This document shows positions 1,722 through 2,338 of a DNA stretch of 17,766 nt, piece after piece. The number at the start of each line of letters is the position of its first letter. The stretch's first letter is position 1. The stretch spans positions 1-17,766 of the forward strand of contig NW_021824756.1 in NCBI RefSeq assembly GCF_006345805.1, in the 5' to 3' direction. The DNA comes from Octopus sinensis (Eukaryota). The position numbers and the translations under genes were made by a program. The notes beneath the pieces were generated by a model. That model did not search any database and was not told the origin of the DNA. It was given only the letters and a program-made list of their open reading frames with translations.

Positions 1722-1824
1722 TCTCTCTCTCTTTCTCTCTCTCTCTCTCTCTCTCTCTCTCTATATATATATTATATATATATATATATATATATATATA
1801 TATATATATATATATATATATATA
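1722..1824. repeat. (CT)n followed by (TA)n microsatellite
   Basis: Directly visible. Confidence 0.95.
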
Positions 1825-1857
1825 AATCACAATAAGCACATAGGATATCCAGAGGTA

Positions 1858-1942
1858 TGCAGTACGATCGTTTCATGCAACTTCATTTAATTGAACAATG
1901 CAATCATTACATCAATTTAAAATGAGAGCATCTTCAGCTGCA
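1858..1942 (-). ncRNA. Type I hammerhead ribozyme motif
   Basis: Minus strand reads TGCAG-CTGAAGA-[long helix II]-GAAA-CGATCG-TA-CTGCA. Stem I is TGCAG/CTGCA, the CUGANGA and GAAA boxes are intact, the cleavage triplet is GUA, and helix III is palindromic (ACGATCGT). Confidence 0.75.
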
Positions 1943-1992
1943 CAAAGACATAGATTTAATTTAATTACATTTAATTAAATTCTATGTCTTTG

Positions 1993-2156
1993 TGCAGCTG
2001 AAGATTGCTCCACATTTTAAATTGATGTAATGATTGCATTGTTCAATTAAATGGAGTTGCATATCTTTGTGCAGCTAAAGATTGCTCTACATTTTAAATT
2101 GATGTAATGATTACATTGTTCAATTAAATGGAGTTGCATGAAACGATCGTACTGCA
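1993..2156 (+). ncRNA. Type I hammerhead ribozyme motif with duplicated helix II segment
   Basis: TGCAG 1993-1997, CTGAAGA 1998-2004, second degenerate box CTAAAGA 2075-2081, GAAA 2140-2143, CGATCG-TA 2144-2151, CTGCA 2152-2156. Confidence 0.65.
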
Positions 2157-2338
2157 TTACTTCTGGATATCCTTGTTGCTTATTTTGATTTTAATCACCT
2201 TACTTTGAAATTGTATAGATAATTCCGTACTAATTTCTGGTGCCTCAACTTCAGTACCATATTCATCTGAATATACATACATTATATATATATATATATA
2301 TATATATATATATATATATATTAATATATATGTATATA

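Follow-up and report, generated by a model that had tools for sequence, protein, structure and literature searches.

Head-to-head truncated ends of a Penelope-like element with a long-helix-II hammerhead motif, and the pairing of short and long ends across its family in Octopus sinensis

Architecture of the insertion

The window analyzed here is a whole 17.8-kb contig of Octopus sinensis, and the genome searched for related copies comprises 2.72 Gb and is repeat-rich. A single 450-bp insertion into (TA)n occupies positions 1824-2272. It consists of two 5'-truncated ends of a Penelope-like element (PLE) of the Hydra clade, joined head to head, and meets (TA)n on both sides. The features are listed below in window coordinates; signed positions refer to the element, with position 0 being the C of CTGAAGA.

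1762..1823, no strand: (TA)n target microsatellite, left flank
1824..1967, minus strand: short arm, a 5'-truncated PLE end spanning -31 to ~+116
1857..1943, minus strand: type I hammerhead motif with intact core, predicted cut 1863/1862
1953..1982, no strand: head-to-head junction, where the arms end at the edge of an AT-rich word
1969..2272, plus strand: long arm, a 5'-truncated PLE end spanning -29 to ~+197, with an internal 77-bp duplication
1987..2063, plus strand: duplication copy 1, in which CTGAAGA (1998-2004) is intact and helix II is present but no GAAA adjoins
2064..2157, plus strand: duplication copy 2 and 3' half of the hammerhead, with CTAAAGA at 2075-2081, GAAA at 2140-2143 and predicted cut 2151/2152
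2190..2272, plus strand: PLE "tail", 83 nt here, on one arm only
2273..2338, no strand: (TA)n-rich right flank

The palindrome that the initial annotation centered near 1967 is real: the center of the inverted repeat lies at 1967/1968, the arms are 85-98% complementary, and the stretch folds as one hairpin (-232.5 kcal/mol, z -25.8). Each arm ends at the 5' edge of a 14-bp self-complementary AT-rich word of the family (-30 to -17). The unit is asymmetric: where the palindrome ends, the right arm runs on for another 83 nt (2190-2272) until it reaches (TA)n. In other copies of the family, this tail is up to ~119 nt long, and in those that continue into the ORF, it directly precedes the start codon.

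The initial annotation read CTGAAGA, helix II and GAAA in succession in both arms. This reading holds for the left arm, where CTGAAGA (1937-1931, minus strand) is followed by a 56-nt helix II region, GAAA (1874-1871), CGATCG, TA and CTGCA, with the self-complementary ACGATCGT at 1871-1864. It fails for the right arm, which contains a 77-bp tandem duplication (1987-2139) with units 96% identical and three transitions apart. The right-arm box located 58 nt before GAAA (2140) is CTAAAGA, with a G5A change at a core position, and the intact CTGAAGA sits 135 nt upstream of GAAA. Because the GAAA-proximal box carries G5A, an ordinary core in intact form is confined to the left arm. The predicted cut positions had been placed correctly on both strands (1863/1862, minus; 2151/2152, plus).

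An assembly fold-back artefact is unlikely, given that substitutions separate the arms and three transitions separate the duplicate units. The locus is an ordinary, old, dead insertion, and the hammerhead in it is a passenger.

A type I hammerhead motif with a long helix II

The core CUGANGA ... GAAA ... UH is intact in the left arm, and comparison with sister families bears out its assignment as a type I hammerhead. Across 13 aligned sequences from these families, the core columns are invariant, with N7 being A, G or U. Double changes occur in 4 of 6 pairs of helix I, 2 of 4 pairs at the base of helix II and both self-pairs of loop III. In total, 19 cells with double changes were counted versus 7.9 after shuffling, a comparison that yields no probability because the 13 sequences are related and hand-picked. 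In the same alignment, 87.8% of the cells are paired, versus 31-43% when the pairing is slid, and RNAalifold predicts further pairs higher up helix II. Some of the changes in loop III are of the CpG-decay type and hence count for less. The predicted hammerhead fold is thus supported by covariation across the sister families. Single-sequence folding does not favor the hammerhead (z -1.3; -15.7 constrained versus -19.2 free). Loop III is self-complementary across families (ACGAUCGU, -10.0 kcal/mol; ACAAUUGU, -6.4 kcal/mol; G-U variants, -5.8 kcal/mol).

Among 136 copies of the family, the most variable core position is N7 (A in 94, G in 39, T in 3), and the remaining columns decay about evenly. 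Comparison of core and flanks across copies, proposed in the initial annotation, is therefore a weak test, since dead copies decay evenly; the sister families are informative instead.

Two features of helix II had been singled out as unusual, its length and the U-U at 10.1-11.1. The length stands: the helix II region is 56-58 nt in all aligned families, versus ~11-25 nt in the Hydra motifs listed in the available parts of PMC8557442, and a conserved helix II of this length is new here. The U-U is not unusual. In File S2 of Craig 2021 (PMC8557442), 9 of 14 Hydra magnipapillata families have T after ctgatga or ctgaaga and t before gaa; many hammerheads of Hydra-clade PLEs likewise combine U-U at the base of helix II with a palindromic helix III. 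According to the accessible text of Perreault 2011 (PMC3088659), U-U at 10.1-11.1 occurs in natural hammerheads and is the best tolerated mismatch. The family thus lacks the usual G10.1-C11.1 closing pair and has a tolerated variant that is compatible with membership. Within the window, U-U is seen in the right arm, as in the family, whereas in the left arm only one of the two Ts that follow CTGAAGA is present; 3 of the 13 aligned relatives have G-C or G-U.

The Rfam search suggested in the initial annotation returned no hammerhead among the best 150 of 167 matches at E<=5, only hairpin-driven miRNA models. Rfam here misses a hammerhead whose helix II is 58 nt long, as do descriptors with short spacers, so that long-helix-II motifs are probably undercounted. 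The same type of hammerhead is present in sister families (L229-L245, L185, L188, L194, L227, L184). Other, unrelated motifs resembling a hammerhead, in which the core boxes are 50-65 nt apart and loop III is palindromic, were observed at three loci (L162:4298-4398, minus strand; L207; L146), which suggests that the genome contains more long-helix-II families.

The initial annotation pointed to the dimers that PLE hammerheads with a short palindromic helix III are thought to form. The two motifs of the window lie on opposite strands, so that one transcript carries one sense motif and dimerization in cis is impossible. A read-through transcript would be expected, from the modeled fold, to bury its sense motif in the long hairpin. 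Whether such a hairpin would act as an ADAR or siRNA substrate, as the initial annotation suggested, is a hypothesis only.

Linkage to an RT-endonuclease ORF and clade assignment

An exact 21-mer from the 3' half of the element has 1,225 matches in the genome, versus 0 for the control. The same 21-mer is present in 7 of 44 copies recovered with other queries; the total number of copies is therefore likely to be several thousand. Copies of the family are 89-93% identical, and their 5' ends are widely scattered.

Upstream of the family end lies an AT-rich 3' UTR of ~2.8-2.9 kb composed of degenerate 600-890-bp repeats that are 65-73% identical. Three to four such repeats make up the 3' UTR in L063, L064 and L158; the repeats gave 0 Pfam families in six frames and no match to the ORF. 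Beyond the UTR are a GIY-YIG-type endonuclease (EN) with the motifs CNCRVKSHC, CELC and CVH, an asparagine-rich linker and an RT. The order in L158 is an inverted hammerhead arm, RT (motifs ADKT, QLDINSYYSSI, FDIGMDSSD and LYRDG), N-rich linker, EN, ~2.9-kb 3' UTR, hammerhead region and tail. In L168 and L172, the hammerhead is followed by the tail, ATG and the ORF, which starts ~265 nt after the CUGA box. Hammerhead and tail are thus found both 5' of the ORF (L168, L172) and 3' of the UTR (L158); no single copy with both ends was recovered. All ORFs in the copies read are broken, and none is intact.

The link to Penelope suggested in the initial annotation is borne out, in that RT and GIY-YIG sequences occur in the same copies as the hammerhead: by motif, an RT and, at the C-terminus, a GIY-YIG share one ORF linked to the hammerhead end. 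Pfam searches gave no RT match and only a sub-threshold GIY-YIG match (E 0.01), and among the Atlas neighbors, RVT_1 occurs in 12-42% of the members, a figure of use as a lead only. Because Pfam support is weak, the family was placed in its clade by a comparison of motifs by eye, with the definitions of the Hydra clade taken from section 11 of PMC8557442. The family shows the features of EN+ PLEs, namely, a pLTR repeat at both ends, a tail and an inverted 5'-truncated copy. In common with Hydra-clade PLEs (Penelope-13_HM and Hydra-1_Obim in the available parts of PMC8557442), it has ADKT, with DKT in place of DKG; RW near the N-terminus (VRWIAYH); a CxCx5C linker; CxxC and CxH flanking E and N of a C-terminal GIY-YIG, with CCHH absent by eye; and a (TA)n target, seen at both flanks in the window and at most copy ends. 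By these motifs, the family is assigned to the Hydra-clade EN+ PLEs. The Neptune clade (DKG, CX2-5CxxC linker, CCHH), our initial guess, does not match the motifs of the family.

Several characters set the family apart within the clade. The element is ~6 kb long including the 2.8-2.9-kb 3' UTR, whereas Hydra-clade PLEs are generally <3 kb, and its N-rich RT-EN linker and 83-119-nt tail are unlike those PLEs, so far as the latter are described in the accessible sections of that paper. It is also distinct from Hydra-1_Obim, from which it differs, on comparison by eye, in the N-terminus and the hammerhead. Judged from these sequence characters, this appears to be a new, long Hydra-clade family.

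Inverted truncated PLE copies with a one-sided tail have been published (available parts of PMC3846280 and PMC8557442), as have dual min-HHRs on opposite strands, 100-700 bp apart (PMC4209133, in part); the accessible text of PMC13282606 does not contain the word "ribozyme". Penelope-13_HM has a 5'-truncated inverted copy with one hammerhead per strand (PMC8557442), and the inverted pLTR-tail units described in PMC3846280 and PMC8557442 show the same head-to-head truncated copy, tail at one end and palindromes at the junction. The tail is optional or "often" present at one end in these descriptions, whereas here it is counted as part of a strict pairing tied to alleles; it is also 2-3 times as long as the 30-40 bp stated for PLE units.

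The initial annotation took the palindrome for a non-autonomous ribozyme retroelement, which would be a self-contained, retrozyme-like unit in which the paired hammerheads act together. Short copies are indeed far more numerous than ORF-bearing ones (593 versus 154 first-look candidates), and non-LTR retrozymes, which share the type I hammerhead, the palindromic loop III and PLE ancestry, have been proposed to derive from PLE ends (10.64898/2026.07.22.740005, in the part available). However, retrozymes are head-to-tail tandem hammerhead units without an ORF, an arrangement that the family of the window does not show; there is neither a fixed 5' boundary nor a head-to-tail array, and the motifs lie on opposite strands. 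Moreover, each palindrome has its own junction, so the palindromes have not been propagated as units. This proposal is largely refuted and barely credible: the arms are ordinary 5'-truncated ends of a protein-coding element with scattered 5' ends.

Cut-site, splicing and RNA evidence

If cleaved RNA served as the template, copies would start at +77. Among junctions retrieved by exact pattern, 12 of 13 matches were true at +77, 2-3 of 7 at +80 and 11 of 14 at the +74 control, many of them by microhomology. A single-anchor search (86 matches, sorted by hand) gave 11 starts at +77, with ~7 expected, and 2, 8, 5, 10, 3, 7 and 4 starts at +78 to +84, respectively; the remaining 36 were indels, ambiguous or starts at +85 or later. 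The excess at +77 is not significant, and cleaved RNA as the template was rejected. The lack of a significant 5'-end excess at the cut site is consistent with uncleaved templates.

In one RNA run of a related organism, which does not address the locus itself, 362 family reads from both strands showed no joints and no end pile-ups. A splice acceptor just before CUGA was considered and rejected: at this position the sister families carry GG instead of AG, and the RNA reads contained no joint. In L168 and L172, the ATG is immediately preceded by a pyrimidine tract and AG that resemble a 3' splice site, at which RNA coverage is nil; if used, this putative site would place the hammerhead in a 5' UTR intron.

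Short and long ends are paired

The 3' ends of copies, taken as BLAST end points, fall into two classes, at +114-118 and at about +192-233. We examined 84 head-to-head pairs, a set in which the near-identical duplicates L180 and L181 are both counted. Of these, 77 combine a short and a long end and 7 include one end of intermediate length; no short+short or long+long pair occurs. By discovery set, the short+long rule holds in 13/14, 14/15, 9/9, 6/8, 19/21 and 16/17 pairs. Family B, with hundreds of copies, follows the same rule.

The two arms of a pair also share lineage alleles. Over 50 pairs with >=55 nt of overlap, arm divergence is 6.0% within pairs versus 12.2% between pairs. In a family-A set, which leaves out one duplicate and the 17 pairs that had been flagged as mixed or as belonging to family B, the arms agree at +4 in 21 of 22 cases (shuffle mean 11.3), at +14 in 16 of 16 (7.9) and at +60 in 32 of 33 (23.7). 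Concordance at +56 is at the level of chance (27 of 34 versus 27.6), and the arms in the window differ at this site. Such sharing fits one RNA and two RNAs of the same donor alike.

The 5' extent of the arms could be resolved in 63 of the 77 short+long pairs: the short arm reaches further in 25 and the long arm in 14, the two are within 10 nt of each other in 20, and 4 have no overlap. Thus, neither arm is nested in the other. Among the 84 junctions, 38 have gaps of more than 10 nt and 26 overlap. Both ends of the insertions lie at short AT microhomologies with (TA)n.

Of 29 insertions taken in genome order, at least 10 have an inverted partner that itself shows a 3' end, a lower bound scored by eye. 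With only 10 of 29 having a partner, two-ended events are not the sole outcome; either one-ended events also occur or partners have been lost.

The strict one-short-one-long rule, together with arms sharing lineage alleles, is new here. In the literature searched, we found no statement of strict pairing or of a double-priming model, which older Penelope or Xena papers may contain. The pairing rule at the level of the family, rather than the locus, is the part worth following, and its copies, which are dated and number in the thousands, provide a natural data set in which the ends form two sharp classes.

Origin of the head-to-head pairs

The best explanation, and one that we consider probable, is that the enzyme cut both strands of the target and made two copies of one RNA, each started from one of the broken ends. 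Reverse transcription would begin at the inner site when primed by one target end and at the outer site when primed by the other; the two cDNAs would each stop early and then be joined head to head, often at self-complementary words. In the window, the 77-bp duplication would have arisen by slippage on the template around the time of insertion. Any activity of the hammerhead would lie in the donor transcript, where it would work as a dimer formed through the palindromic loop III or with the help of protein. Double-ended priming on one RNA is favored by the end-class rule, the shared alleles and the lack of nesting between the arms, combined with the two start sites known in vitro. Against it stand the chance-level concordance at +56, the modest share of insertions with a partner (10 of 29) and the junctions, of which 38 of 84 have gaps of more than 10 nt and only 26 overlap. 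As described in the accessible sections of PMC11167929, a PLE protein cuts and extends both strands in vitro and starts at two internal sites on an uncleaved RNA template; counting against the proposal, no strand difference in start site was observed there, and paired products are not described in these sections. The family resembles this Poseidon PAc system in having two internal start points downstream of the hammerhead, an AT-rich target and an uncleaved RNA template. It differs in that the PAc ORF starts inside the hammerhead rather than ~265 nt after the CUGA box, and the available text of PMC11167929 does not describe the two sites being used as a pair, one at each of the opposite ends of the DNA. 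For this existing system, the rule of one short and one long end per pair, together with the shared alleles, makes a direct prediction.

The process would resemble L1 twin priming, in which a second target end primes internally, producing an inversion. It would differ in having a fixed second site and arms that overlap in most cases, so that either strand displacement or a repeated passage along the RNA is needed.

An unlikely alternative is fold-back self-priming, a published model, proposed on an antisense template (PMC3846280, in the part available). The cDNA would fold back and prime its own copying, and the endonuclease would resolve the hairpin intermediate at staggered points, leaving the tail on one arm. 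The model accounts for the shared alleles and for junctions at self-complementary words, given that GGATATCC junctions recur and 26 of 84 junctions overlap. However, because the short arm reaches further 5' in 25-29 of 63 pairs, fold-back would require trimming to a fixed point in the one arm or the other. Furthermore, both insertion ends are at AT microhomologies with (TA)n, as target priming predicts, and the two internal start sites demonstrated in vitro are on sense RNA (PMC11167929, available sections).

In another scenario, two RNAs of the same donor, joined by a loop III duplex or a protein dimer, would each prime one DNA end. The conservation of loop III self-complementarity across families fits this scenario, which also predicts shared alleles, but two equivalent RNAs should yield some short+short and long+long pairs, and 0 of 84 were observed. 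In addition, the long arm in L024 and L117 begins <=15 nt downstream of the short-arm end, as a collision on one template would give. We therefore regard the use of two RNAs as very improbable.

Double-ended priming on one RNA might extend to PLEs in general, with about even chances in our assessment: a dimeric RT-endonuclease would cut (TA)n on both strands and copy one RNA from two fixed sites, one per DNA end, and the conserved 58-nt helix II would be a protein docking arm, not a ribozyme decoration. If true, double-ended priming alone would account for the tail, for the inverted pLTR and for hammerheads that stand head to head. The formation of tandem and inverted PLE insertions is a named open question in the accessible part of PMC8557442.

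Other features of the window

Several further repeats were observed in the window. Positions 5692-7075 and 9152-10547, as well as 8610-9208 and 10548-11142, are near-identical duplicated blocks (97-98%, with many gaps) that probably reflect either a segmental duplication of recent date or an artefact of the assembly. An internally deleted element at 14302-14870, which we take to be mariner-like, has inverted ends and a fragment of a transposase C-terminus (HPPHSPDIAPSDFHLF). A broken LINE reverse transcriptase fragment, presumably CR1-like, is located at 13100-14040 on the minus strand. Direct repeats of ~60 bp at 448-507 and 1310-1370 surround an 800-bp pyrimidine-rich segment, possibly another mobile element.
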